Source: Rhizaria sp. SCN 62-66
Taxonomy: Eukaryota
DNA: 39,338 bases
NCBI GenBank assembly: GCA_001724265.1
Contig: MEDY01000060.1
Location: 62,001-101,338 of the forward strand
Reading direction: 5' to 3'
Each line of letters begins with the position of its first letter. Position 1 is the stretch's first letter. Shown here piece by piece: positions 6,961-39,338 of the stretch. The notes below the pieces were generated by a model that was given only the letters and a program-made list of their open reading frames with translations, did no database searches and was not told the DNA's origin. Both the position numbers and the translations under genes were made by a program.

Positions 6961-8523
6961 ATGGCCCAGCAACCGCAAACCCCGTCTAGTAGCGGCAACT
7001 TGTCTTTCGCCGCCTTCAAGGGCCTGTCCTCGCTTGCTCCCGCGTCGGCCCTCTCCGGCTTGTTCCTCTACCCCGGAGCCGCCTCCACATCGGCCGCCGT
7101 GCACTCCTCCGACGCGGGTTCCGTCTTGTCTTCACTCATGATGGCGAAACACGAAGCCTCCTCCGCGTCTCTGTCACGCCCTGTCATCAACGGCGCCTAC
7201 TCCGCGCCCGTCCACGCGCCCACCCTCGTCCTCCCGTCGGGGCCCGCGGCGCCCTCGACCCTCGCGCTGACTTCCCCCGTCCCCACAGGCGGCGCCGCCG
7301 GTCTCAGCCTCGTCATGGGCATCTCCGGTGGTCACATCTCCACGCTTGCGCGCAACATGGGGCTCCCGCTTGGTGTCATGGGCTCTGGACTCGGTCAGCT
7401 TGGCGCCGTCGCCCCCGCCGCGCCCCTTAGCACCGGCGCGGGCACAGGCGCAGGCATGGGGGCTCGTAGTGTTGCACCTGCCGTCGCGCCGCGTGTTGGC
7501 GCTTCGCTGGTCACGAGTACCGGCATGGGTTCCGCCGCGACCGTGGGCGGCACGGGTACCTCCCCCGCGTCCGCGCATCTCCTCCGCGGCTCCGCGGCCG
7601 CCGCTGCTGCTGCCGCTGCCTCTGTGTCGGCCGCCGCTGCCGCCGCGTTGCGCGGGCCTGTCTCGCCCGTCCCCAGCGCAACCGCGGCGTCTACTTCGTC
7701 AGCATCGACGTCGGCGTCGTCGCAGTTCAGCGACGCCGCGGCCGCGGTTGAGCACCTCGCCAAGAAGGCCCGTCTCGCGCCCGTGCTTGCCAACAGCGTC
7801 AACGCTACGACAGCGTCGTCTGGGCTGTCCCTTGCGACGACTGTGCCGTCGCCGGTCGACATGGCAAGTGCCACTCCGTCGCCCACCGCGTCCTCGCTCG
7901 CCGCCAATGCCTCGACCAACAGCGCTGCCGCTGCGTCTACACTTGCCACGAAGCCCGGCAACGCGTTCAGTTTCAACAACAACAGCAACAGTAATAATAG
8001 TCTCATCAGCGGTTTGAACAACGCGAGTCCCGACACGATCGCAAACCTCATCTCAATCCTCTGTGCCGCCCACAACCAGCCCAACGCTGGTTTACCCGCC
8101 ATGTCGGGGCTCAACGCCTTCGCACCCCCGGCGTCGAGCGCGCTGGCGGCCGCGCCGCTACAGGTCACGGGCTCGCCGGCGGCGCTGCTGACGGGCGCTG
8201 ATCTCGATGCGCTGACGAAGCTTGTCGAGTACCGAGTTCCGGAGCCCGGCAACCAGCAGCAGACGCAGCACTCGACTCCCTTACAGCAACAGCAACTGCA
8301 GCAGCAGTCGAATCAGCTGTTGAGCATGCTGCAGCAGCAGCAGGCGCAGCACCAGCAGCAGCAGCTCTACGTGCAGCAGCAGACGCAGCAACACCAGCAG
8401 CTCATGGCAGTGTACAACAACAAGACGCAGCTCAACAACAGCAACAGCAACGGCATCAAGGCGCAGCTGAGCAACCAACAGCAACAGCAGCTGCTTCAGC
8501 TCCAGCTCCAGACCGCTCAGGCT

Positions 8524-8563
<40 letters not shown>

Positions 8564-9046
8564 CTAAGAACGCCGCCGCTCTGGCCGCGGCACACCGCCG
8601 CGTCAACACCGCCGCCGCAAATGCCAACGCCGCAGCCGCAGCCGCCGCCGCGGCCGTTGCCGCGCCGTCCGGCTCCTCCCAGCCGTCGCCAGTGCCTTCC
8701 TCCAGTCAAAACTCGGCGCTGGCGCTGTCTCTGGCACCGGCGACGCTCGGCCAGGCCAACGCACTCGCCGTCGTCGCCGCCGCCGCCGCTGCCGCTGCCG
8801 CTCAAGCCCAGGCGCAGGCTCAAGCGGCGCGGCAGGAGGCGCGGGTTGAGTCGCGCAAGCGCACCCGCCCTTCCGCCGGACCCTCTGCCATCGACAGCGC
8901 TGTCGCCGCTGCGGCTGGGACCGGTGCGGAGACTTACGACAGCGACACCGCGGCGGCCGTGGCCGCCGTCGCGGCCGCCGCTGCGTCGGCAAACGCGGCG
9001 ATGGCTGCCGTGGCGAATGAGGCTGCGGCCAACGTCCTGGCGGCCT

Positions 9047-9105
<59 letters not shown>

Positions 9106-9981
9106 CAGCCGGTGGCCAAGAGCCGCGGCGGTCGCAAGCCTAGCGCCGCCAATGCCACTGCCGCCGCCGCTGCCGCCGCCGCTGCTGTCGCAGCTGCTGC
9201 TGAGGCGGGCCGCTACGAGTCAGAGCATCACCACGCTCTGCCGGGCAGCAACACCGGTGAGTTCGACAGCAGCGCTGACGGCGGCGACGACGACGACTCC
9301 TCAGCCCCCGCTGCTACCCAGACGGCTGCTGCGGCGGCGACGGCGAGCGCGGGTCTGCCGCCTAACTCGCGCCGGTCGTGCCCCGTCTGCTTCAAGACGT
9401 TCCGCGACGCGTACTACACGGCGCGCCACATGCTGACGCACTCCAAGGTGCGCGATTGGCAGTGTGCGCTGTGCCACTTCGCCTTTTCGCAGCCCGGTCA
9501 TCTCTCGCGCCACCTCAAGGCGATCCACCCGGCCGATTGCCGCGCCGCGTGTGGGGCGTGCGGCGGCAGCTTTGCGCTCCAGGGCGCGCTGCTGCAGGAG
9601 AAGGTCGTGCCCTGCGCCCACTGCACGCAGCCGTGCTCAGTTCACGCCGCGCTGCTCAAGTTCAACGAAGGGCTTGCGGCGGCCGCCAGGGACGGCGCTG
9701 TGGCCCCGTCACAGGCACAGGTGCAGCAGGCAGAGGCGCAGGCGCAGGCGCAGCAGCTCGCCAACGTGCAGGCGCAGATGCAGGTCGCCCAGGCGCAGGC
9801 ACAGGCGCAGGCACAGGCGCAGGCGCAGGCGTTACAGGCGCAGATGCAGGCACTCACGCAGCCCTCTGCCCACAGTCACTCGCGCGCGCAAGACGCCATG
9901 TCCGCTGCCGTGGCCGCGGCGACGGCGGTGTGGGCCGCGCGCGGGCCCGCGGGCAACGGCGTTGATTCTGACGCGCAGTAA
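6961..9981 (+). CDS. C2H2 zinc-finger protein (putative transcription factor) with poly-Q and poly-A tracts, about 1006 aa; start uncertain (an upstream in-frame ATG lies near 6883)
   Basis: Single long GC-rich ORF. Two tandem C2H2 fingers at 9379-9528 (CPVCFKTFRDAYYTARHMLTH-SKVRDWQ-CALCHFAFSQPGHLSRHLKAIH), basic patches (SRKRTRP, KSRGGRKP) and Q-rich segments; ends in TAA. Confidence 0.8.
9049..9108 (+). repeat. CAG/CAA trinucleotide repeat encoding Q20 in the zinc-finger protein
   Basis: Visible run of 20 CAG/CAA codons; a second shorter run lies near 8524-8562. Confidence 0.95.
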
Positions 9982-10155
9982 GTAAGCAGCCAGCAACAAA
10001 CAGCAAACTGGAAGCGAGAAGTGGGAACGTGCTGTTGTTGTTGCTGCTGCGTGCATGCGCCCGTGTTGTTGATGTTGTTGTTTTTTTATCCGTAATTTGT
10101 CTTCTCTCATCTCGTTCGTTCGATACTTTCTGTAACCAAACAATAGGTATAATTT

Positions 10156-10158
<3 letters not shown>

Positions 10159-10192
<34 letters not shown>
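10159..10192. repeat. (CT)17 microsatellite
   Basis: Perfect dinucleotide repeat in the presumed 3' UTR of the zinc-finger gene. Confidence 0.95.
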
Positions 10193-10199
<7 letters not shown>

Positions 10200-12157
10200 C
10201 TGAAGTGATTTGTTACCCGCCGACCCCCTTCCTTCTTTCTGTCTCAAGAACAACAATCAGACATGTCCACCAATCTTCTCTTCACCACCCTCTATTCCCC
10301 TCTTACACTTAGTACACACACATATATATATTTACGCCACGCCGACTTCAATGTTTCAATTTTAACTTTGTTTCTTGCTCTTTCTTTGCGACTGTTCCGC
10401 AGTCTCTTCTTCTTGTTTCTGTCAAGTCATGTGTCCGCGCTCTCGCCTAGATGCATGTTCCTTGTCTAAATTTTCAAAAAAAATAATTACTTTCGTCACG
10501 TTCTTGTCTAGTCTTACTTGAATGTTTGTTACTTTTCGCTGCACTGCGCCAGCAATACTCCGGTCATCGTTGGCTGCAACTTCCCACTACTGTTTATATT
10601 ATGCTGTTTATCTTGATGTTTATTTGATTGCGACCGTCTATATATTGCGTTTGTTTTTCTGTTTTTGGGATTGGTTTTCTCCGACATTTTCGTTGCTCTT
10701 CCTGACCTTTGCGCTCTGACCGCGTCGTATCTCCGTACGTTCTGTGCTGTGTTCTGTGCGGTTGCTGTGTTAAGCTCCACATGTCGAACCGCGCTACGCT
10801 GTCACTCCTGCATACGGACACGCCGCGGCGGACTCTGCAATTGTGCGTCGGGAATGATGCTCGATGCCGTGTGTTTGTACCTCCCATATTCCGTGCTGTG
10901 CTCATTCTGATTGGCTGGCGCCCCCCCTCTCTCTCTTCTGACGTTCTCTAGTGTGTTGTCTATGTATGATTGTCTTGTTTGCTTGTGTCACTTCCACTGT
11001 TTCTCTTTCTTTTTAGTTTTCTGAGCTTGTTTCGTAATACTTTGTTTTCTTTTCACCTGGCCGTGCAGCGCTTTGTCGCCGCTTGCTCCATTCCAACAAG
11101 CCTCGTTTTTATGCATTGCCCACAATCGCCGCGTCCACACACACCAAACACAATGTACATTTTTCCGTTTAAATAGTGTCTGTGTGTGACGGCGCGACGA
11201 TGCTGAAACTTTAGTCGCTCGGCTGAGAGCTGACCCGAAAGCTGTGGCTGTGCAGTTATGCACATGTGCGCGTTGCAGTGGTCAACGTACGCTGGAGGCG
11301 GTCTCGATCCAACTCCTCGCTTCGACACATCACGCGCTCGCGTTCTGTATAACTCTAACACCGTCGATCTTGCCCAATTCACTTGTTTCTGTTCAGAGTA
11401 CAATTGCTTGGCATGATCGGAAACGTTGCCTAGTATTACTATCATTATAATTTTATAATTATTTCGTTGTTACATAATCAATCTGATGGCATTCTTTCTG
11501 TAATAAACAATTACTATCTATTGTTCCAAGCTTCGTTGTCAGTGACTGCAGTCGCATTACAGGAGCTACATTATTTGTTTTACGGGACTTCATGGCAGGC
11601 GTCAGCTTTTGTGGACATTTATGTTTGTATTGATAGTCTTGCTTCATAAATAAGAAGCAACAAACTAAACATATTAAACCGCGCAAAGTGGTGGCGGATT
11701 GAAACAAAACAAAATGGAGGGGGAAAAAATGAACATATGAACGAACCAGCACACACAATGCGTGGGTGCGGCAACATGCCGCATTAGGTAAATAAAGGAA
11801 TACAATAAGCAGGTAAACTAGAGTAACAGGTGACAAGCCGAGAAAAAAAAAGTTGTCTTTCGTGTTCTCTCAAAAGAGAACGGTTCACGAAAAGCTAACC
11901 AAAGAGCAGAACAAATTGTGTGTTACTTTTCGTAACAGCACACAGCACTTGGACTAAGAGCGCATCACAAAAACAAATCCTTCACAGACTGACTAACAGA
12001 CTGATTAGCTGCACATCACAGACGAAGCGTTGGCTGAGTAGCTAAACATCTCAGCAACAACCTAACACTGCACAGCACAAGCAAGCAAGCACATTGCATC
12101 CGTCGTACTACATGATGTTTAACAATTGCGTGTCGGGGATAACGGCGTTTGGGACGC

Positions 12158-22771: not shown

Positions 22772-25700
22772 ATGTCGTCATCATCTGCTGACGCCATTAG
22801 CGTCGAGGTCCGTTCTACCGCCTTAGGACCCGTTCCCGTCATTCGTAGATCTCTCTCAGAATCCTGAACATTCCTCCGAACCGTTTGTTGCTTTTGTGGT
22901 CATTTCTCATTCCTCTCACACATCGCACCGATACTGCGTCTCACACTCATACAGGCCCTGGAGACTGTGCATTTCCGCTTCGTCTCCACGGACGATGACA
23001 AGCTCGCCCCCGCTGTGGCCCGCGTCCTCCCCCGCATCCTCCGCCTCCTCGCTCCCGCCGCGCCCGCCGCGCCCGCCGCCGCCACTGCTGACGGCGCCGC
23101 ACAGCCCATATCCGCGCCGCCGCTGGCACCCGTGTCGCAGATCTGCGCGCACCTGCTCAAGCGCATCAAGGCCATCCCCGCTTTCCCCTTGCCGATCCCA
23201 GCCTTGCTCGAGGTCGCCCGTGACGCGCGCGCCGGCATCTTGCTCCCCACGGCGTCTCTGCTGGCGCTCTCGTTCCTCGACTGCGCCGTGCCGTCGCTGC
23301 CGCGCGCCGACGCCGCCGTGGCCGCACTCGCACTGCTGCCCGGCGTTGCCGCACTGCCCGCCGCGCAGCAAGGCCTCGTGCTCTCTCTGTTCCTCCGCGC
23401 CTTGCCGGGCTTCCGCTCAGGGGTCTACGCCGACCTCGACGCCACCGTCGCCGCCAACAAGGCTGCCGCTGCGACTGCAAGTGGTGCTGTGGAGACTGCT
23501 GCTGCTGTTGCTGCGGTCGGTGTGCCTGAGAGCGCGCCGCTCGTCGCGCGGCTGCCGGCGGGGCTGCTTGAGGGCGCGCGCGCGGCGTTCATCGCCAGTG
23601 AGGACGACAAAGCGCTTGTTCTATCGGCGATCAAGGAGCTGTTCCTCTTCGCGCCTGACGCGTACAACGCCGCCGTCGCTGCCGCCACCAGTGCTGCCTC
23701 GGCGGCTGTTGCTGGTGTGGGCGCTGCTGGCGCCGCGGTCCCCCAGTCGCCTCTGTCCCCCGTCTCTCCCACCGGCGCCGCCGCCGGCGCCGCAGCTAAC
23801 TCTGTGACGCTGCCCGGCTTCAGCCCCGCGTCACTGGCGCGCTTTACGCGCAGCGGCCGCTGGGTGCCCGCGGGAGCTGATCTCGAGGCCCTGCGGACCG
23901 CGGCCGTGTCGTTCCTCGCCGCCTCCGCGGGCCCGGCGCCGACCTACGATCCCGAACTCACAGGGGCCGCCGCCTCTTCTCCCACTTCCGCGAGCCTCGC
24001 AGACTCCATCTCAACGCCATCCATTCCTGCTGTTGCTGCCGACGGCGGTGAGGACTCGCCCTCTGCTGCGTCTGCTACCGCGGCAACAACAGCCGCGACG
24101 GCGACGGCGTTCACTTGTGCCCAGGTGTACCCGGTCCTCGTGGCCGCCGCCGCATGCGCCGAGGACCGTGTGTCGATGCGCGCCGAAGAGTCCGCGCGCC
24201 GGCTGCCCGGTCTCGCGCCCCACGCCGACGCGGCCCTCGTCGCCGGGCTCTTCGCGCTGTACTCCGGCGGCGCCACGTCCCCCGCGCTCTCACTCGCCGC
24301 CGGCTCTGCAGCCCAGGTCGCTCCAGCGCCGCTGGCGGCGAAGCTGCGCGTGATCGAGGCGCTGCGCCAGTCCCGTCTCACCGCGGCGCCTGCGTTCGCG
24401 GCCAGCACACTCAAGGTCGTGTCGGATGCGTTCTTCGCCCCCGCGCCCGCGGCCGCCGTCGTGGGGGGCGGGCTGGAGGGCTCGACCGTCCGCACCAAGG
24501 CCGCCGGCGTCGCGCTCGCGTCGTGGGTGCTGATGCGGCTCGGCCAACCCACCGTGGATGTCACCGCAAAGAATCCTGCTGCAGGGGTTCAGGCGGCCAA
24601 TGCACCGGCGCCGTCGCCGTTGCCGCGGCTGTTGTTTCCGCTGCTCCTGACGCTGCTGGCGCGGATGGCGGCTGAGCAGCGCCGCGACTGGGCGGCCCGC
24701 GACCGGAGCCAGGCGTCCCTGCGCTCGCTGTCGGCCTTCGCGCCGTCCGCGGCCGCGCCCGCCGGCGACCGCGTCGCGGTGTCGACGGCGGCGCGCGACG
24801 TGCAGTGGGCTGCGCTTCGGGGGTCAGTCTACCACTGTCTCGGGGCGCTCGCGGCTGCGGCGCCAGAGACGGTGAACCGCAACCTCGCAGTTTTCGAACT
24901 CTTGCTCGCGCCAGTTGAAGGCGCGCCCGTTGCAGTGTCATCCTCCTCTTCCGCCGCTGCGTCTGCGTCTGTATCGGTGGCTTCCGGTGCGGTGGGGGCC
25001 GCGGGCGCGCTGGCTGCCGACGCGGCCGCCGCGGTGGCCGCGGCCGAGGACGCCACAAGCTCCGGCGCGGGCGCCAGCGCGGGCGCGGGCGGCGCCGGCG
25101 CCGGTGCTGGCGCGGCTCTGCGCCAGGCGTGTCTCGAAGCGTTATCGATGCTGCGGCCAGGGTTCTCCGCGTCCCACGCGCCGCCCGCCGCGCGCCGGCT
25201 GCTGCGGGCGCGGCTCTACGCGCTGCTGGGCGAAGGCCGCCGCCGCCGCCTGCTCGCGTTACAGTGGCTGAACCGGCTCTACCCGTTCTCGGACGCCGAG
25301 GCGCGGGTGGCATGTTGTCTCGCCGCGGCGGACGCGGCGCCAGAGGTGCGGGCTGAGGCGCGCGCGGGGCTCGAGCTCGGCACCGGCGTCGGCCGCGAGG
25401 CGGGTGACTCATCTTCCACCGCCGCCGCCACCGTCACTGCCTCCTCCACGGTACCCAGCTCTGCGTCTGACCAGGACGAGGCGGTGTTTGACGGCGACGG
25501 CGGGGCGAACGCGGCGGCCGAAGCGCTGGCGGCGCCGCAGCAGGCGCCCACGGCGGGCTCGAAACATCCCGCGTTCCCGGTGTTCATGGACGAGCTGCGC
25601 AGGCGGCTTGACTTTTCCGCGCTGCTACCGCTGACGCTCGAGGCTAAGCATAGCGTGGCCGCCGCTGCGGGCTCTGCCGCCGCCGCTGCGGCAGCTGCCG

Positions 25701-28700
25701 CTGCGACGGACCATGCGTTCAGCGGCTACTCAACCAACGCTCCCTCTAGCGGCGCTGCAGCTGCAAGCTTAGGCGCAGGCGCGAGCGCAGGCGCGGGTGA
25801 GGGCGCGGGCGCGGGTGAGGGCGACAACTCTGACCACACGCCCGGTGGGACTGCGGCCGCGACGGTGCTTGCTGCACTGACCGCCGCGGCGGCGGCCGGC
25901 GCCGCTGCGGCCGCGGCTGCCACCGCAGCGGGCGCGTCCGCCACCGACGCCGAGGCCGCCGCCGCCGCCGCCGCGCTGGCGGCGTCTCCCGTGCCCACCG
26001 TGGCCGTGACCAACCTGCCGTCCCAGGCGCTGCGGGCGATGCTTGCGTTCGCGCTTGAGACGCTGCGCGCGTCGGCCGAAGCCGCTGCCGCCGAGAAGGC
26101 CGCTGCCGAGGCCGCCGCCGCCGAGACCGCCGCCGCCGAAGCCGCCGAAGCCGCTGCGGCGGCCGCGAGCGAGGCCGCGGCACTCGAGGCCGCTGGCGGA
26201 GTTAGCCCCTCTGCTGGTGGGCTCAAGGAGACTGCGCTGAGCAAGGCCCTCGTGCTCGTCCAGGTGGCTGACCCCGCCGCTGCGGAGGCCGCGTACCTCA
26301 CCGCCCTGCTCGCCACCCCCTCAGCCGCCGGTGTCCGCCCCGCAGGCGCCTCCACTGGCGTTCCGGCGGGCGTCGCGGCGGCTGCGACACTGCACGCGCT
26401 GGCCGAGACCGGCTTCACCCCGCTTGCGCCGCCGCCGCTGCAGGACGCGGCTGCCGAGGCGCTGCTGCGGCTGCTGCGCGGCGCGCCCGGTCCGTTCGCG
26501 CGGCTTCTGCGTTCGCGCACGCAGTGGTTGCTGCGGCTCGCGCTGTCTGCCTCGGCCGCCGACGCGCGCGTGTGCGCCGCAGTGACTCTGGCCGAGGTCG
26601 CGCCCGGGATGGCCGTCACCGACCTACTGGGGCTCGCCGCGCGCTGCCTGCCCGCAGTCGACCACGCACGGCTCGCGGTGGAGGACAGGCGCGCGCTGCA
26701 TAGGGCCGCCGCGCAGTGCCGCGCGCTGAGCAAGCCCGCGCCCGACGCGCGCGCCCCGGTGTACTGGCCCGCCGTGGTCGACGCAGCCACGGGCAGTGCG
26801 GTCACTGCTGCCGCCGACGAGGATGCCTCGACAACCAGCGCGCTGCTGAGCTTCATGCTGCCCGCCCGCGCATCTGCTCCGAGCACCGCCATTACTGCCG
26901 CTGCCACTGCGCGTGCTGTGGCGATGACGGACTCTGACTCGGCCAGTGCCGCTGCGTCCGCGTCTGCGTCTGCTTCGCTGGGCGCGTGCTCGCTGCAGCC
27001 CTGTGCCGCTCTGGCCGCGTCGCTGTCCGCGGCCGGCGCGGGCACGAGCGCGGGCGCCGAGGCCGCGTTGCTCGTCCCCGCGGCGCCACGGCTCGACACA
27101 GCGCAACTGCAGGGTGCACTTCTCGCGCTGGGTGTCGCCGCGGCGCAGCTGGCTACGCACCCCGCCGTGCGCCAGGCGCTCCACTGGGCTCGGCCGCGCC
27201 GCGCGGGCGCCACGGCAGCCGCCTCAGCAGCCGCCGAGGCTGCGGAGGACCCGGAGCTGCGGCTGACGCCCGCGCTGGCGGCCGCGGCGGCGCTGGTGCC
27301 GCTGGTGACGCGGCTGCTGCTATGGTTTGTCTCCCCCGCGCCGGGCCCCGCGCTGCTGCTGCAGGCGCCTGACGCCGTCGCTGCAGCCGCGTTAGCGCTG
27401 GCGCGCGTTGCCTCCGCGGGCCCCCTCACGCCCGCGCTCACAGCCTCCTCTGCCGCTGCCTCCTCCGCCGCCTCCGCGGCTGCTTCCGCGGACGCCGCGG
27501 GCTTCGCGCCCTCGCTGGCGACGGCGGTGGCTGATTTGTCGACGCTCGTGCGCGGTGTCGCGCCCTCGCGCGCGGACACTGCGGCCGCCGCCGTTGCCAT
27601 CGGCGGCGGCGGCACTGTCAACGCGCGCTTCCTCGCGCAGCAACAGGCGCAGCAGCAGCAGGCGCAGGCGCAGCAGCCCGGCGGCGGCGCATCGCAGACT
27701 CCCGCCGCGGCCGCCACCGCCGCGGCAGCCGCGGCCGCTGCCGCGGCCGCCGCGCCGCCGCCGCGCCAGCCCGGGCGCGTGTCAGAGCGCGCCGCCCTGG
27801 CGCTGGGCGCGTTGTGCATCGGCGACCGCTCGCTGCGCACGCTGGCGGAGCTGCGGCCCGCGCTGGCGGCGCTGGGCGCGGTGCGGCACGAAGAAGTGCA
27901 CTTCTCTGTCGGCCAGGCGTGGGTCATGTTCGTCACCGGCATGACGCTCGAAGGCGAGGCGGATATCGTCGATCTCTGCCCGTTCCCCCCGCTCGCACCC
28001 TTCCTGCCGCCCAGCGCTGACACCGACGCCGACGGAGCCGCCGGAGACAGCGCCAACGCCGGCGTCGGCGTTGAGGGCAGCGTGGCCCCGCGCCGGCTGC
28101 GGCTGGCCAAATCCCTCGTTCCGCCCGAGGCGCCCGCGGCCGCGCTGCCGCTGCTGACCGCGCTGCTCGCCGACGCCGGCGAGTGGCTGCGCCACGGCTC
28201 GCTCTCTCTCCGCGCGGCGACCACGGTCTGGCTGTTGTGCCTTGTGCGCCACCTCGCGCGCATGCCAGAGTTCGTCCCGCTCGCGCCGCGCGCCCAGGTG
28301 TGCTTCATGCGCGCGCTGACCGAGTCGGACTCGTTCGTCCAGGAAGCGGGCTCCAAGGCGCTGTGTCTGCTGCACGACGCCGTGCCGTCGCCCAAGGCCA
28401 AGCAGGAGCTCGTCGACGCGCTCATCCGCACGTTCACCGCGCCCGCGGCGGCGGCTGCGGCGGCGGGCCGCGGCAACGCCGACACGGTGATCGACACCGG
28501 CAAGGGCGGATTCGCGACCTACCGCGAGCTCGTCGCGGCCGCGCACGACATGGGCCAGCCGGGGCTGGTATACCGCTTCATGGATCTCTCAGCGCACCAC
28601 GCGCTGTGGAACAGCAAGATGGGCGCGGCTTTCTCGCTCGGCACGCTCCTCGCGCGCACGCCCGGCGGCGGCGCTGCCTCCGCGGCCAACAAGGCGGGCG

Positions 28701-31700
28701 GCACTGAACGCAATGCGACCGCGCCCGGTGTGGCGCAGCTAGTGCCCAAGATCTTCCGTTACCGCTACGACCCGAACCCAAAGATCGCGGCGTCGATGGC
28801 GTCGCTGTGGTCCGTGCTGCTGCCCGACCCGCGCCGCGCTGTGGCGGACTTTTTCGACCCCATCACGCGTGAGCTGTTGGCCGGCATGCAGCAGCGCTCG
28901 TTCCGCACGCGCCAGGCGTCCTGCGTCGCGCTCGTGGAGGTGCTCACGTCCCCGGGACTGCCGCGCCGCGCAGTGGTGGGCGTTGTGGGGGAGACGTGGC
29001 CGCTGCTGCTGCGCGCGCTCGACGACATCCACGACGACGTGCGCAAGGCTGCGCTGCGTCTCGCGCGCACGCTGTCGTCAGTCACGCTGCGGCTGTGCGA
29101 CCGCTCGCTGTCGGGCGCCGCGGACTCGGCCGCCGCCATCGACGCCGTGCTGCCCACGCTGCTCGACGTGGGGCTGCCGTCGCGCGTCAAGGACGTGCGG
29201 TCTGTGGCGCTTGCCGCGCTGCTGGGCGTCGCCAAGGTCGGCGGCGCGTCGCTGCGTCCGCGCGCGCCCGCGCTGCTGGGGACACTGCTCGAGGGCCTGT
29301 CGTCGCTGGAGCCCGCGGCATTTGCGTACATGCAGTTCCATGCCGCGTCGGTTGATATGACGTCTGAGCAGCTGGAGCGTCTCCGCGTCGCCGTTTCGCG
29401 ATCATCGCCGCTCAACGAGGCCATCGCGTGCTGCCTCGCGCTCATCGACGGGTCCGTGATCCGCGAGACTGTGTTACGCCTGCAAGAGGTGATCCGCGTG
29501 GGCGTCGGCTTCCAGACGCTCGTCGCCGCCGCCAAGGCCATCGTCACGCTCATCTCCACGGCGCTGCGCGCTGATAATGCGGCGACGATGCGGCCCGCGC
29601 TCGCTGACGCCGTGCCCGGTCTCGCCAAGACTCTCTGTGCCGGGCTGGTAGACCCTTCGGCCACCACGCGCAAGGCCTACGCACACGCTCTCGCGCACTG
29701 CTGCCGCGTCGCCAAGCGCAAGCGCGTCGGTAAGATCGTCGCCGTGTTGGCCGCGCTCTTCGGCGCCCCGCTCGCCTCGGCGGGCGGCGACCCCGCGGTC
29801 GCGGCCGCGGCCGACTTTTCGCTCTCTTCCCGCGCGCTAGGCGGCTCCGGCGCCGCGGGCGGCAGCGGCGCGGGCGGCGACGCCGACGCGGGCTCGATGC
29901 CCGTGCCCGAGGCGTCGTCACCCGCTTTCGCGCGCCTCGCCGCGGCGACTGCGCTAGCCGAGCTGCTCAAGGTCGCGCCCGAGGCTGTGCGCGACTTCGC
30001 TGTCGACATCGCGCCGCTGGCCTTCCTCGGCATGCACCTGTCCGCCGCCGCCGTGCCGCCGCCGCCCGCGGCCGCGCTCCAAGGCCTGCCCAGTATGATG
30101 GCCGGCGGTGCGTGGGTCACTGCCGCAGGCACCGGCGTCACGGCCACCGCAGCTGCCGCAGCCACGTCACCCTCAGCGGCGCCTCCTGTTGCTGGCGCCG
30201 GGGAGTCAGACGCGGGCGCGGCGTTGCGCGCGTTGCTGGCGGCGTCGCAGTCTTTCTTGGCGACCGCCCCGGCCGCGGGCGCGGGCTCCACTGCGCTGGA
30301 CGAGGCCGAGCGCCTGATCCGCAACATCGGCTCCACAGTCAGCGGGGACGCCGGCGCCGGCGCGGCCGCTGCTCTCGCCGGCGCCGCCTCGTCCGCCGCC
30401 GGCTCCGGCGCGGCCACGGGGTCGGCGGGTGCGGTGAGCGCCAGCGCGCTGCTGGCGTCCGGCGACTCCGGCGCCGAGGCCGAGGCCGCGGGGCTGTTCC
30501 GCACGGTGTGGCGTGAGACGGCCGCGGGCGACGCCACAGGCGCGCTGCTCTACGCGCTCGACATCTCCGCCGGCGCGGCGCGCGTGCTCGCCGACGCGGG
30601 CGCCGAGTACGCGCTTAAGGCCGCGGCGCTGGGCGCGTTCGAGACGCTCGCACTGCTGGCGCACGCCGCGCTGCCCGCCGCTCTCGACGCCGACAAGCTG
30701 CTACGCCGCCTGTGCGCAGTCATGTCCGAGCGCGCGTGGAACGGCAAGGAGCGCGGTTTCGGCGCCATCGTCGCCGTACTCGCCGCCGTGCGCGCGCATG
30801 CGGCCGCGAACCCGACCGCGGCGCCCACCGTGTCGCAGGCGTGTCTGCAGACCGTGTTCGACACGCTCGCAGGCGAGACCACGCGCGCGCGCGTCGGGTA
30901 CAAGAAGCGCGCTCTCGCGGCGCTGGGACAGGCCGCGGCGCTGTTCCCGGCCGCCGGCTGCGAGGGCGGCGGCGCGCGCAGGTCCGCGCTGGCGGCGGCG
31001 CGGGCGTGCGTGTCGCCCTGGCTGCTGCTGGAGAACGAGGCCGAGGACGCCGCGGCAGCTGCGCTGGGCGGCGCCGAGGCCGCTGCGGCAGCGGGCTCGG
31101 GCGCCGGCGCGGCGACGGTCCGCGGCGGCGCGGGCGCTATCGGCGGCGAGGACGCTACGGGACTCAACGGGATGCGGTTGACTGAGCTCAAGGCTGAGTC
31201 GCTGCTGTGGGAAGTTGTGCTCGTCGCGGTCGGCCACGCAATCCCGCCCTGCTCTCTCGAGAGCCACACCGCGTCTGCCGCGATCACGGTGACTGCGACT
31301 CCGGCGGCGGGCGCGGAGGCGACGTTCGCAGACCACGGGCCGTGGGCGCTGGGCCTGCTGCTGCGCGGTCTGCGCCGCGGGCTGGCGTGGAACGCCCGTC
31401 TGGCCGCGCTTGAGGGGCTGCTGTCATGGACCGCGCGCGCCCCGCTGGCCCTGGCAGTGCTCGCGGGCGCCGCTCTGGCGGCCGCAGCCGAGGAAGGACT
31501 CGGCGACGTCAAGCACAAGCTTGTGCGCATGGCCGCCGTGCGCCTTGTTGCCGCGCTCGCCGCGCGCACGCGCCAGGCTGCGGCCGAGGGCGCGGCGGGC
31601 ACTCTGGCGCTGGGCGCCTCGCTGACCGGACTGGGCGCGCGAGTGCGCTCGGTGGCGGTGGCGGACCCCCGCGGAGAGGTCATGCTGGCGGCCGCTGAGT

Positions 31701-31852
31701 GCGCGCGCGCGGTCGAGGCCGCGGAGCGTGATGTCGAGAAGTCGCGCTCGAAGGGCGCGATTGCGGGTGCCGGTGAGACGCAAGGCGCTGGTGTGCGCAT
31801 GGGCGATGGTGACGGCGACGGCAAGGAGGAGAGTGGCTCGGGCGACATCTAA
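22772..31852 (+). CDS. ECM29: ECM29/ECPAS proteasome adaptor and scaffold (HEAT repeats); exons 22772-22807 and 22955-31852; about 2977 aa
   Basis: N-terminal ALETVHFRFVSTDDDKLAPAVARVLPRILRLL and the characteristic core TYRELVAAAHDMGQPGLVYRFMDLSAHHALWNSKMGAAFSLG...LVPKIFRYRYDPNPKIAASMASLW...WRTRQAS-like FRTRQASCVAL...LLEGLSSLEP...ERLRVAVSRSSPL; ends in TAA. Exon 1 (MSSSSADAISVE) is inferred. Confidence 0.9.
22808..22954 (+). other. Intron of ECM29 (147 nt, phase 0)
   Basis: GTCCGT donor after a 12-codon ATG exon, ACAG acceptor; supplies the ATG that the 8.9-kb ORF lacks at its 5' end. Confidence 0.7.
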
Positions 31853-32200
31853 GCTTTGCCTTAGTGAAACTATCTTCGATAATAGTGAATTATAGTAACC
31901 GGAACAATTGAAAATGCAGTCAAAATACATTTATACGAATATTCTTAACTTGAAAATCGACTTTTATAGTACAACCACACATTGCCTTGCGACTACCGAG
32001 AGCAGGTCGAAAAGAGAGGAGCCGAGAAGCGAGGAAATGCGTGATTAAATTAACATAGTATCCGTCGTCTAAACATGGTTATCGTGGTGTTTAAGGTGTT
32101 TTCAACTTTTTAATTTTATATTTCTTTAATTATTTCTCACTAAACGTATATCTTCCCTGTGAACCCGTCTCTCTTTGCGCCCACAGTCCGCTCAGGTCCG

Positions 32201-35200
32201 ATGCAGAACCGACCGACCGGATTTCTGGGATACACAAAGTCCCCGAGCGGTGAGACGCTGCTGCTGCTATGGAAAGCGCGTATGACAACGATGTCCACCT
32301 CCTCGACGTACTACGGTGATGTGATCTGTGATCGCAAGCGTCAGGACGCTATGGTGTCGGACATGATCTCTCGCACAGTGGCCGAGAAGACTGCCGGTCT
32401 GTTGGCCTACGTCGCTGAGACCGATAAGCGTGCCAAGAAGGACGACGGCAAGAAGGACAAGAAGGATAAGAAAGACAAAAAGGACAAGAAGGACGCCAAG
32501 TCCGACAAGGCCGCAGCAGCAGCTGACAAGAAGGACAAGAAGGACAGTAAGACCTCCAGCAGCGACAAGAAGTCATCATCTTCTTCGTCTTCAAAAGACG
32601 CCACCAAGGACGACAAGGAGACTACTGCGAAGCCCGACGCGCCCGTAGTGAAGACCGCCACGAGCGCCGACCCCGATGCCTCCTCTGCTGCTGGTGTCAC
32701 GGCTGCAACAACTGCAACTGCAACTGCAACTACGAATGTCGCGCCTGTGACTGTGAGCGCCCATGCGCCGCCGGCGTCGTTTTACACCCGCACGCTGTTT
32801 GCATCCGTTCCTTCGTCGACGTTTCTTGAGGAGTTTGACAAAGAGTCTGCCGCCGCCGTCACTGCTGCTGCCAAGGCCGCCGCTGCTGCTGAGGAGGAGG
32901 AGGAGGAGGACGACGACGACGACGACGAGGACGAAGACGATGACGACGATGATGATGACGATGACGACGACGACCTGGCTGGTATGCTTGCCGCCGCAGC
33001 CGCAGCCGGCAAAAAGTCCGACGCCAAGAAGGACAAAAAGGACAAAAAGGACAAGAAAGACAAGAAGTCTCGCCGGAGCAAGAAGAAGAAGTCTAAGTCC
33101 ACCCCACCGCCGAAGCCCGTCTTGCATTACGTGCACAAGGCGCGCAACGACCTCCGCACACTGCTCGCCGCCCGCAAGCGCGTGCAATACCTCACGCGTT
33201 CCGTGTACGCCGCCGCTGCAGAGGGCGACGTCACGAGTACCACTGGTTCCGCCGACAGTGCGGGTGGTCCGCGCGCGATTGTGACCGCGCCGCGCGCGCC
33301 GCTGACTGTGCTCGCGCCCGTCCCTTGGTGTGCGGCGCACCGTCTGGCGCTGCACATGCGCACGGCCCCGGGGGCCGATGGCGCGCTGCGTTGGGTCAGC
33401 GTGCGCCAAGTCCTCGCCGCCGCCGCCGCCGCGCGCCGCGCCGCTGCCGCCAGTGACGACGGGGCAGTACCGGACGTGCGCGTGTCTGCGTGGCGTGAGG
33501 GCGAGGACTCGTATGCGCTACCTGCCGCGCCGTTCTCGCGCAAGGCGGGGACTGGCGGCGTTGTGTCGACGGAGGAAGCGGTGGCGGAGGACGATGCTGA
33601 GATCACGCTTACAACGCAGTTCCAGGCATTGCTGATGTCGCCCCCCGTTGCCGACGCGCTCGCCGCCGTGGCCAGTCTGGAGCTCGAGCCTGAGACCGAG
33701 TCTGAGTCAGATTCAGACTCGGACTCGGACTCTGACAACGAAGACGGCCCAAGTCACGGGCACGGTCTCAGCCAGGGCCAGAGTCAAAAAGACAAGAAGT
33801 CGGAGGCGGAGGCGGAGCTTGCGGCGGAACAACAGCGCAAACTCGCGGCTTTCGCGGCGCAACAGGGCTCGATCAACGTCTTCCGCTGCCGTAGGTGTCG
33901 CCGTGTGCTGTTCACTGAGCGCGATCTCGTTGCACACGAGCCGCTTGACCTCGTGGTAAGTCAGTTGTCACCCACGAACGACGCATATGATCCGCATTGT
34001 TCCTCATTAAATCTGCTCTATCTTGACTATCTATGCCGTTCCGTGTCTACATTATTTTTTCATAACTCATATGTTAACATTCTTTTAAATTCTTGGTTTT
34101 ATATTTTGATCTTCAAATATATCTCTCACATCTCTCAACTTGTGCTATGTTTACGCAGGCGCTTGGCGAGCGTCGCCGCGCGCAGGCCGCAGACCAGGCC
34201 CGCGCTGCCGTGCTGCGCGTGGTCAAATCCGACCACGAGTCTCGCATGCGTGCCCTGTTAGCGCAGTCAAAGACCGCGGCTCGCCAGCTGCAGGCCGTGG
34301 AGCAAGCGATCGTTGACCGTGAAGTGCGTCGCTTACAGGCCGAGGACGCTGCGATCCTGGCACAGGACTCCCGTGGCGGCGGCGGCGGCGGCGGGCACGG
34401 TGTCGGTGTAGATATGATTGAGCCCGAGGACGGGGACGAGTTTTACACCATCGACGGCGACGGCGACGGCGAGAACGCCTGGGACGGGCTCGACAACAAC
34501 GGCGACGGCGACGACGATGAAGAAGATAAGGATGGCGACGATGACGACGATGAGTACGGCGACGCTGCTGACGACAGCGGAACCCTCGAAGAGCGCCGCG
34601 CGCGCCACGAGGCGACGATCGCCCGGCTCGAGCAGGCTGTCGCCCGCGAGCGCACGCGATTCCAGCGCGAACTCCGCCGCGAGCGCGAGCGCTTCGATGC
34701 CGCCTCCGCCGCTGCCGCCGCCGCCGCGGGCACCGAGTCGAACGAGTCCGTCGGCGCCTTCGAGTCGCCGGCGCTGCTGCCCGGTCTGGGCGGCGGGTTG
34801 TCGACCAAGCCGGACCGTTTGCGCACCGTGGGTGCGTCGGCGCCGCTGTTCCGCGGCAAAGGCTCGCACAAGTCTATCGTGCCCGGGCTCGCCGCGCTTC
34901 CGCCGGCGTCGGCGTCGGGAACAGTGGGCCCACGCGAGGGCGTGCGCGCGCGCGGCCGCTGGCAGACCGCGGCGGACGACGACGACCCTGCCGCCGCCGC
35001 CGCCGCCGCCGCTAAGAGCACCGTGGGGCGGCTGGCGTGTACGTCGTACTTCCTCACCTCAGAGCGGCCGCTGCGCGCACTGGCTCCGTTTTCTGACCCC
35101 GCGGGCGGGCCCATCGCGTGCCCCGGCTGCGCGGCGACCGTGGGTTGCTACAGGTGGGGTGGCGAGCAGTGCTCCTGCGGCGCGTGGGTTGTGCCCGGGA

Positions 35201-35550
35201 TGCGCGTGCAGCACGCCGCTGTGCACAAGCTCTCGTTCGACCTCTCCGCTGCAGCTGCAGCCGGTGCGCCAGCTGCCGCTGCCTCAGCATCTGCCTCCAC
35301 GACTGCGTCTGCGTCGACACCGGCGACCACAGAGGGTGCCGAGTCTGCTGCGGCGGCCGCTGCGCCTGCGCCTGCTGTTGCTGCTGCTCGTGAGGCGACG
35401 GCTGCAGCGGCGGCGGTGCCCGTTGCACCGGTGCGTGTCGGCGCGGGCGTCGGTGTCGGTGTGCGGCGGCTGGCTGCAGTCAGGCCGCCGGTGCGCAAGC
35501 CTGTCGTGGCGCCCACGGCAGCGCCTGACGCGGCGAACAAGCCTGAATGA
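32201..35550 (+). CDS. Protein with a split DUSP12/Yvh1-type zinc-binding domain plus Lys/Asp-rich repeats; exons about 32201-33955 and 34159-35550; start uncertain (possible micro-exon ATGC 32037-32040 spliced to 32187)
   Basis: FRCRRCRRVLF...VAHEP in the first exon and ACTSYFL...GPIACPGCAATVGCYRWGGEQCSCGAWVVPGMRVQHAAVHK in the second match the Yvh1/DUSP12 C-terminal zinc domain. A GTAAGT...GCAG intron joins the frames in phase 0; ends in TGA. Confidence 0.75.
33956..34158 (+). other. Intron of the DUSP12-like gene (203 nt, phase 0)
   Basis: GTAAGT donor, AT-rich body, GCAG acceptor; in-frame join. Confidence 0.88.
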
Positions 35551-35803
35551 GTCCGGTGAATGCGCAGTCAGAACGTTATGTGGACCGGGAGGTGCATGGT
35601 TTAAGTGAACGTGTTGATGCAACACGGACACGAAGCGTGTGGCCTCTGAAAGATGGCCATGTTTTATGAACACTAAATAAAGCAACAACAAAACTATTTG
35701 TGGATTGTCTGAAAGGTGTTAAATTGACGTGTATTAAAACTATGTAGATTGAATCTCTCTAAGTAACGTGAACTCATTGTTTCACTTGCGTTGTCATAAC
35801 CTC

Positions 35804-36691
35804 TTAAACAGCAGCACCCTCCGCCGCCGTATCATCACAAGCTGTTTCCTCACTCGCTGCAGTCTCCGCAGCCTTGCACGCGGCCTCCGCGACAGCAGCT
35901 GCATCCTCCTGTGACAGATCAAAGTCAAGCCGCGCGGTATCAAGATTCTGCAACAGGAGCTCGCTGTTGGGCGTGTCATTCTCATCCCAGCGCGCCTCGC
36001 TGGCCGGCAGCGTCGCGCAGATCCCCGCGGCCCAGTTGCGCCGCGCGCCGCGGCGGCGACACTCGTCCAGCGGACACCGCAGCAGCGTCCGGAGCGCAAA
36101 CCAAGGCGTCACGGCCTCGCGCCAGGGAGACAGCTCCAGCAGCAGGTACAGCCCCTCAACGAGCGCCACACGGCACGCGCGCGCGGGCGGCAGCGCGGCG
36201 GCGCCCGGGGAAGGGTCCTTAAGCGCGTGGTCCCACCCGGGCGCCGCCACGGGGCCCGGCTCGGTGGCGACGGCGTGCAACGTGCGGCAGAGGGCCAGGG
36301 GGTCGAACGTCCAATGCGCGCCGCGGCGTGCGTGCGCAAGTGCGGGGGACGGAAACTAGTCCAGAGTGGACCGGGGCAAGTGGAAACCGTCCATGGGCAG
36401 CACGGTGCACGCCTGGATGGGTGGGGCGTCTGTGGAGGAGTCGGCGGCCGCATTGGCACTCGGCGATGAAGAAGCACGGGCACGGGCGCGTTGGGCGGCA
36501 ACAGCGTTGGCGAGACTGCAGAGGTGGCCGGCAAGAGTCGTCTTGCCGGAGGCACAGGGGCCAACGAGGGCCACAAGCCAACGCTCGCGGCCGGGAGGCA
36601 GGGGCGTCTAGGAGAGCTCGACAATGCGCTCAACGAGCGCCGCTGCCGTCGCAGTCGTCGGTAGCGCGATCACCGCGTCTGAGATAGACAT
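35804..36691 (-). CDS. YFH7/uridine-kinase/phosphoribulokinase-like P-loop NTPase, 295 aa, intronless, with two internal TAG codons (codons 28 and 112)
   Basis: One 888-nt frame from ATG (36691) to TAA (35806-35804): MSISDAVIALPTTATAAALVERIVELS*TPLPPGRERWLVALVGPCASGKTT...VLPMDGFHLPRSTLD*FPSPALAHARRGAHWTFDP...APGWDHALKDP...VALVEGLYLLLELSPW...RWDENDTPNSELL. All motifs typical of this family are present in order. Confidence 0.88.
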
Positions 36692-36996
36692 CTGACTTCT
36701 CGGCGTCTAAGAAAAAAAAAAGTACAAAAATGGGTTACAAAGGAAATTAGCTTGTTCAATGACTTGTAGGGAAAATAGAGGCAAAGATATGGCGACTTCA
36801 TTTCTACTCGGTCCTCGCCTCGGCGTACATGACCCCCCTCATGGAGCAAACCAACCATTGTCTAACTTGATACTCGCGACAGAGTCCGTCAAGAGAGATA
36901 AAAGCTGTGATTCGGAACAGAAACGCTAGTTTTTAACTTGTCTTGTTTATTATACTTCAAGAAGCCTCGCTCTAGTCCCTGTGAGCTTGCAAGACC

Positions 36997-38551
36997 ATGT
37001 CTGACTACGAGGACGATCGCCCTCTGATGACGGGTCTGCAGACGCACCAGGCTTCCTATATGGCCTCCTCGTCCTACGCTGACGTCTCTCCGGCCGAGCA
37101 CACGGAGCAGTCTTTCACCTTGACAATGTCTGCTGGTCGTGGCGTCATGTTCTGCCTGGTCGGCATCTCGGCCAGTTTCCTGCTCGCGCTGGCCTGGGTC
37201 ATGGCCACCGACGCCGCGCATGTCACGCGTACGCACTGTCGCGTCGCAAACTGGCTGCCCTCGTTTTCCGCCGTCATCGGACACTCCTACATTACCGTAC
37301 GTTATTGTACTGTCATCCGCCGACTGCACTTTGTTGCCTGTCCACCTATCATGGACAGCTGACGAACAAATATCTCTTTTTCGCATATCACATGCTCACT
37401 CGCTCTTGAACTCTTTCGTGACATCATTATTGCGTATTACTCTTACGTGGGCATAGTCCGCGCTGTGGCGCACCGGCGTGTGCATTATCTTCACGATCCG
37501 CTGCGCGAGCGCGTTTATCTACCACTACTGGTACGCCCCGCCCTCCGCCGTCTCCGTTTCATCTTTCGCCCCGCAGACCTCGTCCTTCGCCGCGTCGGCC
37601 ACGGCCGATGACCTGTGGGGCGGGCCCTGGCTCTGGCGGCTCTCGCTGCTGCACTCTGCGCTTATTGTGCTGGAGAACGTGTCGCTGCTCGAGCTCACCA
37701 GTATCACTTCGAAGGACTCTGGTTCGACGCACGAGATCTTCTTCATCCTCTTCATCGTCGCCGCAACGACGGGCATGCTGCTGCAGTTCCCGCTGCTCAA
37801 CCGCAAGATCGACACCCTCACCGCGCTCGCAGTCGCGGGTGGCTCCGACCCTGGCGCCCCCGCGCTCAGCCTCAACGCGACCATGGGCAGTCAAGGGACC
37901 GTGGGCGCCACTCAAGGGGGGACTGGGACCGTGAGCGCCGCAGTGGCGGCGGGCGCGGCCGCGACCGTGGCGCGTCTGCAGCGCTCGCGCATGTACAAGT
38001 CCGCCTTTTGCGTGCTGTGGCTGGGGCTGCTGTGCGCTGCGGCGTATCTGTTTCAGCGCCACAACGCGATGTGCGAGCCCGGGATCTACTCGCTGTTCGC
38101 TCTGTCGGAGTACTTCCTCGTCGCGTCAAACATCGCGTTCAATTCGACGCTCGCGATGGACGTGCCCGGGGGCGCGTACACGTTTACGATGCCGCACTAC
38201 AGCCTCGCGCAGTCAGGCGGCGCGCTGTCCGGCTCACAGTCACTCCCGCAGTCGCAGTCTCACTACATGCGGGCCCGGTCTGCGGTGGCTGCGCGCGGCG
38301 GAGGGCGGGCGCTCGTTGGCGCGGCGGCGGCCATCGGTGTCGCCGGCGTCAGCGGTGTCACGGGTACTGGGGCATCCTGGGACGGCGATGGAACCGCTGA
38401 CAGTGACGGCGCTGGCGCTGTGAGTCGCGCTGGACCTGGTGTTGGGGCCGGTGGTGCTGGGGCTGCGTTCGTGGCTGGGGTGGGCGCTGTGGGGGCGGAG
38501 CCCGTGGCACGGGGCGGCTGGCGCGGCGTCGGAGCAAAGGCGGGGATGTGA
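36997..38551 (+). CDS. PGAP2: PGAP2/FRAG1 (Frag1/DRAM/Sfk1 family) post-GPI attachment factor; exons 36997-37296 and 37457-38551; 464 aa
   Basis: THCRVANWLPSFSAVIG|..LWR, ENVSLLELTSITSKDSGSTHEIFFILF and FQRHNAMCEPGIYSLFALSEY are PGAP2 motifs; phase-0 intron; ends in TGA. Confidence 0.88.
37297..37456 (+). other. Intron of PGAP2 (160 nt, phase 0)
   Basis: GTACGT donor, CATAG acceptor; splicing restores the family spacing LPS..SA.IG-x8-WR. Confidence 0.85.
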
Positions 38552-39004: not shown

Positions 39005-39338
39005 TTAGAGCTCGAGCTTCTTGGGAGTCTCCCAGGTGAAGTCAGAGTCGGCGCGGCCGAAGTGGGAGTAGCACGCAGTCTTGGAGTAGACAGGGCGGAG
39101 AAGCTGGAGGTCCTTGATGATCATACCAGGGCGCATGTCGAAGTTCTTATTGACGATGGCGAGGAGCTCAGCGTCAGTGCGGCCATCGAGGGCAGAGCCG
39201 TACGAGTCGACGTGGATCGAGATGGGCTTGGCGACACCAATGGCGTACGAGAGCTGGACGAGGACGCGGCGGCAGAGCTTGGCAGCGACGAGGGACTTAG
39301 CGACCCAGCGGGCAGCGTAAGCAGCAGAGCGGTCGACC
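39005..39338 (-). CDS. MAT: S-adenosylmethionine synthetase (canonical MAT/MetK type), 3' part only; the gene continues beyond the window
   Basis: Minus-strand translation [47 protein letters not shown]...[46 protein letters not shown], then TAA at 39007-39005. Not listed in the ORF track. Confidence 0.96.

Follow-up and report, generated by a model that had tools for sequence, protein, structure and literature searches.

In-frame UAG codons in two otherwise whole genes of a GC-rich wastewater eukaryote suggest that UAG is decoded as an amino acid

Whether UAG can serve as a sense codon in a nuclear genome that keeps UAA as a stop is the question raised by a gene for a YFH7/uridine-kinase-like P-loop kinase. 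The gene lies in a 39,338-nucleotide (nt) stretch of contig MEDY01000060.1 (positions 62,001 to 101,338; Rhizaria sp. SCN 62-66), hereafter called the window, which is metagenomic sequence from bioreactor and wastewater samples. The kinase gene (35804-36691, minus strand) is a single exon that runs from ATG to TAA, and its 295 codons include two TAG codons in frame. A further gene of the window, which encodes a protein with CS and TPR domains (the CS+TPR gene), contains a third, so that three in-frame TAG codons occur in two unrelated genes, each of them filling one residue column in gapless alignments. Judged from the sequence, UAG is probably decoded as an amino acid in this organism, with Gln weakly favored, in what would be a young or low-usage reassignment of UAG alone.

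The kinase gene and its two TAG codons

The kinase frame comprises 888 nt, or 296 triplets, of which 293 are ordinary sense codons, two are TAG and one is the terminal TAA; it starts with ATG. The first TAG (36608-36610, minus strand) is codon 28, in the N-terminal helix upstream of the P-loop, with the peptide context IVELS*TPLPPGRERWLVALVGPCASGKTT. The second (36356-36358, minus strand) is codon 112, in the motif MDGFHL-x4-LD-X-FP, with the context MDGFHLPRSTLD*FPSPALAHARRG. No internal TAA or TGA was found in the frame 36691-35804. The original prediction, made from the letters of the window, had described an 888-nt frame broken solely by TAG at 36610-36608 and 36358-36356, and re-reading gave the same result. 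Its statement that the gene has no frameshift and no internal TAA or TGA was borne out by the intact frame together with the ungapped alignments described below.

The GC content within 60 nt around the kinase TAGs was 0.67-0.70, compared with 0.27-0.50 in the four real introns of the window, indicating that these TAGs are removed by no intron. The claim that there is no room for introns thus holds for the kinase gene, whose TAG flanks are 67-70% GC, and not for the organism, in which four introns are present. No ATG follows codon 28 before the P-loop is reached, and residues 3-27 aligned by BLASTP to the N-terminus of the relative P0282; a later start therefore cannot bypass the first TAG.

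The homolog search was run with X at both TAG positions, and 8,000 candidates were scored, of which 150 were homologs at E <= 0.001. The names and domains of the matches place the kinase in the YFH7/"uridine kinase C227.14"/PF00485 group, and the best-matching solved structure was 2ga8 (E 1.3e-19), in agreement with the YFH7-like P-loop kinase that had been proposed. The features of the YFH7 and PRK-uridine kinase-like family, namely Walker A, MDGFH, AHxRRG, FDH..KDP and EG.Y, are all found in the window kinase, with the Walker A motif GPCASGKT at residues 44-51. In an alignment of 15 sequences (A1), the kinase kept 23 of 23 invariant columns and, by our own reading of the alignment, 10 of 11 near-invariant ones, the exception being F153, which is W. 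PF00485 is carried by many of the homologs; in a Pfam scan of the window kinase itself its gathering score was not reached, and the sole hit was AAA_18, with 22.1 bits against a cutoff of 29.4.

The kinase shares 49% identity across 263 residues with the full-length relative P0282 (271 amino acids [aa]; BLASTP), which belongs to the cluster of its closest relatives. Compared with P0282, it has about 26 additional residues, rich in Ala and Ser, inserted after the P-loop. Both TAGs lie in ungapped stretches of this comparison, the first opposite N and the second opposite Q. In the 15-sequence alignment, the first TAG stands opposite K in P0002, one of the two closest named homologs. P0002 may come from a cercozoan transcriptome, as its prefix, GEZN01, occurs in two Paulinella papers. 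The second TAG occupies exactly one residue column in all 14 homologs of that alignment, as had been claimed for it. This column holds Q in the two closest relatives, followed by A in six sequences, T in three, and R, C and H in one each; the same position is L in 2ga8.

Contigs of metagenome runs were aligned to positions 35600-36900, a span that contains both kinase TAGs. Run X1 gave a single contig of 5,669 nt, with a depth of 36.7, that spans the whole of 35600-36900 with no differences. In X3, both kinase TAGs were present on two contigs, again with no differences. X1 and X3 are possibly the source of the window and are thus not independent of its sequence. X4 comes from another study (2025), and its 188-nt contig at 36451-36638 includes the first TAG with no differences; this run has a coverage gap at 36260-36435, so that the second TAG was uncovered, and X5 covers 35970-36299 only. 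The X4 contigs differ from the window at positions 35693, 35852, 36159 and 36717, indicating a slightly different strain that carries the first kinase TAG. At the covered positions of the four runs, no alternative letter was found at the kinase TAGs. The concern that the reads might show CAG was thus addressed with contigs of separate runs, all of which keep TAG, and the kinase TAGs are not assembly errors.

The protein collection contained no allele of the kinase free of interruptions, the best match there being 61% identical; the cathepsin of the window was present in the same collection at 100% identity, on four contigs. The search for further DNA of the kinase returned only four loci with 36-40% identity in the metagenome scan and at most 36% identity in genome contigs. 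Viral contigs gave no match to the kinase; for the cathepsin they reached no more than 37% identity, and for a fragment of S-adenosylmethionine (SAM) synthetase from the window no more than 62%. Of the words of this locus that were sampled, next to none occurred in two poly-A metatranscriptomes from the study that produced X4.

The third TAG and the gene ends of the window

Every TAG in the window was scored for coding potential on both sides. Besides those of the kinase, the scoring picked one sense-strand TAG, at 724-726 (plus strand); other TAGs with coding-like flanks were dropped, as they lie on the strand opposite to known genes. TAG 724 is in the second exon of the CS+TPR gene, which is encoded on the plus strand. 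Exon 1 (287-386) starts with ATG at 287, encodes the start of the CS domain and is followed by a GTACGT donor at 387. Exon 2 (512-2169) encodes the second half of the CS domain, a linker and the first TPR region. Exon 3 (2304-3308) keeps the frame and ends in TAA. The introns between them lie at 387-511 (GTACGT donor) and 2170-2303 (GTACGA..GTGCAG). Splicing gives a coding sequence of 2,763 nt, made up of 920 codons and the final TAA; a single TAG, but neither TAA nor TGA, interrupts the frame. The CS domain closes with a conserved Trp (W55 in alignment A2), and the TAG follows 15 codons later.

Homologs of the CS+TPR product were sought with HMMER among all of 1.84 billion representatives, and 40 proteins matched at E <= 0.001. 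The closest, P0241, was 55% identical in this search and 57% identical in alignment A2, and it aligned to residues 1-381 of the query in one stretch across the TAG. Around TAG 724 the alignment with P0241 is gapless, with 65% identity over 138 residues, and by our count 35 of the 41 residues between the TAG and the next ATG are identical. For eleven homologs the alignment extends from the CS region of the gene into its TPR region. In these, the TAG column holds S, A, Q, K, S, L, Q, K, T, D and D, directly before two near-invariant Arg residues. Exon 1 agrees with the N-termini of the homologs (MPITP..W.QT). Among the 13 rows of A2, Pfam CS was found in 8 and TPR_1 in 10, and the window's own pieces gave weak domain matches, to SHQ1-like_CS (E 0.084; exon 1, 33 residues) and to TPR_1 (E 0.0077; exon 2). 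We take the CS plus TPR architecture to be DNAAF4/DYX1C1-like.

Given the high identity directly after TAG 724 (35/41), an intron is ruled out and a split into two separate genes is disfavored. An intron ending in TTATAG (721-726) was rejected: exon 2 has no GTA[CA]G donor upstream of this site, the GC content within 60 nt around the TAG is 0.81, and conserved strands of the CS domain would be lost. Fission into a CS-only gene and a TPR gene was likewise rejected on account of the conserved segment between TAG 724 and ATG 850. In the protein collections, a standard gene call of 93 aa that is 100% identical to the window (P0243) ends exactly at TAG 724 and is found on five contigs from three sources. 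This indicates that standard gene callers split such genes, and the annotation of this organism in metagenomes would be wrong. P0241 is itself a prokaryote-style call, which translates the site of intron 1 in frame (GPYASFHAF...PHFPFVV) and runs on into the second intron. Calls of this type on eukaryotic contigs indicate that the relatives are also misannotated in metagenome catalogs.

The 11 gene ends in the window consist of eight TAA, three TGA and no TAG, so that within the window TAG was not found as the normal terminator that would speak against a sense meaning. In the 150 nt after the 11 terminators, TAG accounts for 18 of 84 stop-like triplets, from which the probability of finding no TAG among 11 ends is 0.07. 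The next in-frame stop downstream is TAG for 3 of the 11 genes. The base 3' of the true terminator is G in nine genes, A in one and C in one. TAA is the dominant stop despite a GC content at third codon positions (GC3) of 0.7-0.85, and G after the terminator is a strong termination context.

Some open reading frames (ORFs) of the window seem to end in TAG. The TAG at 2182-2184 (plus strand), the seeming end of ORF 850-2184, lies inside the intron 2170-2303 of the CS+TPR gene and is no terminator. The seeming TAG end of ORF 32159-34261 is an out-of-frame artifact of an intron at 33956-34158 (plus strand; GTAAGT..CGCAG, 203 nt); this gene consists of 32159-33955 and 34159-35550, and its true stop is the TGA at 35548-35550. 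A further TAG, at 37454-37456, is the 3' splice site of the intron at 37297-37456 (plus strand) in a Frag1/PGAP2-like gene, whose exons are 36997-37296 and 37457-38551 and whose stop is TGA. Altogether, the 11 genes, with 10,164 codons, contain three TAG, no TAA and no TGA in frame. The prediction that follows from a reassignment, tested inside the window, held: another gene carries an in-frame TAG, and no gene ends in TAG.

The four introns of the window have GTACGT, GTACGA or GTAAGT donors and YAG acceptors, with lengths of 125-203 nt and GC contents of 0.27-0.50. Three of them (387-511, GTACGT; 2170-2303, GTACGA; 37297-37456, GTACGT) start with GTACG and not with the commoner GTAAGT, and one ends in ATAG. 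The GTACG donors may be a lineage signature.

The meaning of UAG and the competing explanations

Both TAG-bearing genes are otherwise whole, since the kinase keeps 23 of 23 invariant columns and the CS+TPR gene splices to 920 codons in frame. UAG is probably no terminator in this organism. It would be read by a tRNA with the anticodon CUA, the simplest origin of which would be a mutated tRNA-Gln(CUG), and the recognition of UAG by eRF1 would be lost or weakened. UAG would then have gone from the gene ends and come back at about 0.3 per 1,000 codons, at variable, polar positions of two genes. In a settled code, a sense codon would be expected far more often than UAG occurs here. A young change or inefficient decoding is therefore favored, and the picture would be that of a young reassignment or of inefficient translation, not of a code in which UAG is a common codon. 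The original claim that UAG is a sense codon was thus strengthened by the third TAG, by the lack of TAG at all 11 gene ends and by the lack of in-frame TAA and TGA; it was weakened by a usage that is extremely rare, with none in 9 of the 11 genes.

The choice of amino acid depends on a single site. At the second kinase TAG, the two closest relatives have Q, and CAG differs from TAG by one transition, which weakly favors Gln. The earlier ranking, with Gln as most plausible and Leu as possible, was supported by this column and not by the other two, which hold N or K and a mixture of residues. Leu occurs at the TAG columns once among the 11 CS+TPR homologs, in addition to 2ga8, and Leu and other amino acids are possible candidates beside Gln.

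Several observations weigh against decoding of UAG as an amino acid. TAG is very rare, being absent from 9 of 11 genes and amounting to about 0.3 per 1,000 codons. Six large ORFs bounded by TAA or TGA contain no TAG in 7,313 codons, and there are 3 TAG against 301 CAG and 63 CAA. In the same six ORFs, the synonymous C/T pair CTG and TTG occurs at 288:58, from which a settled code with TAG as Gln would be expected to give tens of TAG codons. If TAG meant Gln, the gene in the window most likely to show it would be that of the C2H2 protein at 6823-9981 (1,052 aa), which has long tracts of poly-Gln and poly-Ala; it contains 102 CAG, 15 CAA and no TAG. In addition, all three TAG columns are variable (N/K; Q/Q/A/T/R/C/H; S/A/Q/K/L/T/D), and the residues found in them do not agree on one amino acid for the codon. 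The closest relatives have no TAG at these sites, so that nothing shows the codons to be old or conserved. Two of the three TAGs are in one gene of 295 codons, a clustering that fits a dead gene better, and both TAG-bearing genes are likely to be dispensable. The absence of TAG among the gene ends is itself weak evidence, as P is 0.07 from 11 terminators.

The explanation that competes best with decoding of UAG assumes the standard code and takes the two genes for young unitary pseudogenes or for nonsense alleles that have become fixed. The stops would have arisen by C>T and similar changes too recently for frameshifts or decay to follow. We consider this rather unlikely. Of random nonsense changes in these GC-rich genes, 57-64% would produce TAG, which is the stop within easiest reach, and three TAG out of three stops would be obtained with a probability of about 0.2; nonsense changes as a whole are only 1.7-2.6% of point mutations in these genes. 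Two stops in one small gene, with 9 of 11 genes having none, and ordinary codons in the relatives at all three sites are what a pseudogene would give, and the organism could plausibly do without a YFH7-like kinase and a dynein-assembly-like CS+TPR protein. Frameshifts, mixed stops and lost residues are absent, but a pseudogene that is very young may lack them as well.

Under the same explanation, however, two of the 11 genes of a compact genome would have to be broken, both by TAG only, with no frameshift, TAA or TGA and with the invariant residues kept. The neutral drift of the kinase was simulated by following 33 conserved residues until the second stop, with indels ignored. On average, 71-86 substitutions had accumulated by the second stop, and the probability that none of the 33 conserved residues had changed was 0.045-0.067. 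The joint probability that both stops were TAG and that no conserved residue had changed was 0.016-0.021. If the first stop is taken as the inactivating event, we estimate a probability of about 0.2-0.26 for unchanged conserved residues and of 0.3 for two stops that are both TAG; their product, roughly 0.06-0.08, is more favorable to a pseudogene. This figure, however, precedes the requirement for a second TAG-only "pseudogene" among the ten neighbors and for the absent TAG terminators. In the CS+TPR gene, few stretches are as well conserved as the one that directly follows TAG 724. The lack of TAG among 11 terminators (P = 0.07) is left unexplained by pseudogenes, and the alleles are fixed, with a single letter across four runs at the kinase.

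Another explanation keeps the standard code and assumes leaky termination at UAG or programmed readthrough by near-cognate tRNAs, which would yield some full-length protein and let the genes persist. This appears improbable. The bases after the three in-frame TAGs are A, T and C, compared with G in 9 of 11 true stops, so that their contexts differ from those of efficient stops, and the low usage of TAG would fit a poorly decoded codon. On the other hand, the three TAGs have no downstream motif in common and no common structure, the z-scores of the 100 nt after them being -2.55, +1.10 and +0.51. Readthrough twice in one mRNA would multiply the loss of protein, and a UAG that is usable as a stop would be expected at some of the 11 gene ends.

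The genomic TAG might also never be translated as such, if the mRNA is edited from UAG to UGG (A-to-I) or from UAG to CAG. In some ascomycetes, A-to-I editing in sexual-stage transcripts corrects premature stops, with genomic UAG lying inside intact genes and Trp being restored, and TAG terminators stay in use. The window resembles these fungi in having genomic UAG within otherwise intact genes and differs from them in that no homolog has Trp at its three sites: Trp was found in 0 of 14, 0 of 2 and 0 of 11 homologs at the three columns, which does not suggest restoration to Trp. Editing does not predict that TAG is missing from the gene ends, and the organism is not identified as a fungus. Editing is very improbable here.

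Least probable of all is an artifact, be it an error of sequencing or assembly, a chimeric contig, an intron or gene fission. In its favor, the organism has four introns, one with a 3' splice site in ..ATAG (37454-37456), and TTA stands directly before TAG 724. Against it, the kinase TAGs are the same on contigs of separate runs, five contigs support TAG 724, the alignments are gapless with one residue per TAG, and the flanks have 67-81% GC compared with 27-50% in the introns.

Decoding of UAG as an amino acid may be placed more narrowly, and more tentatively, as an early-stage reassignment in a lineage outside ciliates, fornicates and sainouroids, in which UAG would have been purged from the gene ends, would have ceased to act as a stop and would have come back in dispensable or weakly expressed genes, about one hundredth as often as the Gln codons. 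If true, the organism would represent, alive today, the intermediate with codon capture or low efficiency that theories of code change postulate, and its sparse UAG codons could reveal the first steps of a reassignment. It would also add a further UAG-only nuclear code and widen the known distribution of such codes to a GC-rich wastewater eukaryote.

Known UAG-only codes and the genome around the two genes

Nuclear codes in which UAG alone is reassigned and UAA remains a stop have been described in a small number of lineages, and they show that eRF1 can tell UAG from UAA. The precedents that the original prediction had invoked proved to be real: Iotanema spirale and the rhizarian exLh (Panek et al. 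2017, PMC5304391) and phyllopharyngean ciliates (McGowan et al. 2024, PMC11687900). In the literature on nuclear code change combined with activated sludge, as far as the main texts outside supplements extend, no such case was found.

In Iotanema spirale, UAG means Gln, with 204 in-frame UAG codons in 126 genes and with 104 UAA and 15 UGA as stops, and the meaning is proven at conserved columns and in reads (PMC5304391). The window shares with it UAG alone in frame and never as terminator, a dominant UAA (here eight TAA and three TGA) and Gln as the leading candidate. It differs in the number of UAG codons, 204 in 126 genes there and 3 in 11 genes in the GC-rich wastewater window. For exLh, a member of the Sainouroidea, the same source gives UAG as Leu, with 384 UAG codons in 71 genes, mostly at conserved Leu positions, and 56 UAA and 15 UGA as stops; UAG usage is uneven between genes and rare in ribosomal-protein genes (PMC5304391). 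The UAG-only pattern, with TAG-free and UAA-dominant gene ends and uneven use of UAG between genes, is common to exLh and the window. The mostly conserved Leu of exLh has no counterpart in the window, where Leu is rare at the TAG columns.

The phyllopharyngean ciliates use UAG for Leu or Gln and UAA as the preferred stop, and were characterized from metagenomic genomes of uncultivated organisms, with widespread use of UAG and identified suppressor tRNAs (PMC11687900). They resemble the window in that UAG alone is reassigned and in the uncultivated, metagenomic source, and the window differs in being GC-rich and nonciliate, with GT-AG introns of 125-203 nt and very sparse TAG. Compared with the UAG-only codes as described in these sources, the density of UAG in the window is one to two orders of magnitude lower.

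The window belongs to a nuclear genome with high GC content and few introns, that of an uncultured eukaryote. Coding regions have a GC3 of 0.70-0.85 and are separated by AT-rich spacers. No tRNA gene was found in the window with ARAGORN, and no Rfam match was obtained. Besides the genes discussed above, the window contains genes for a ZIP transporter, a papain-type protease, the C2H2 protein and the Frag1-like protein. The cathepsin matches were unnamed or mixed. The C-terminal 110 residues of a SAM synthetase are encoded at 39005-39337 (minus strand), where the gene is cut by the end of the window; its stop is TAA, and a look-up with this fragment returned bacterial SAM synthetase fragments.

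The spacer at 10000-12150, between the 3' ends of convergent genes, is unusually long for such a compact window, with 2.1 kb at about 44% GC. It contains no convincing ORF and no Rfam match, and a (CT)n-like run is present near 10150-10200 (translated as SLSLSL). An ECM29 homolog is encoded by a single exon at 22967-31852. With 2,961 aa, it is about 1,000 residues longer than its homologs (1,765-2,289 aa), and Pfam matches were found only at residues 56-523 and 2096-2264. Its named matches are from green algae, with 28-36% identity, which we judge to be driven by composition.

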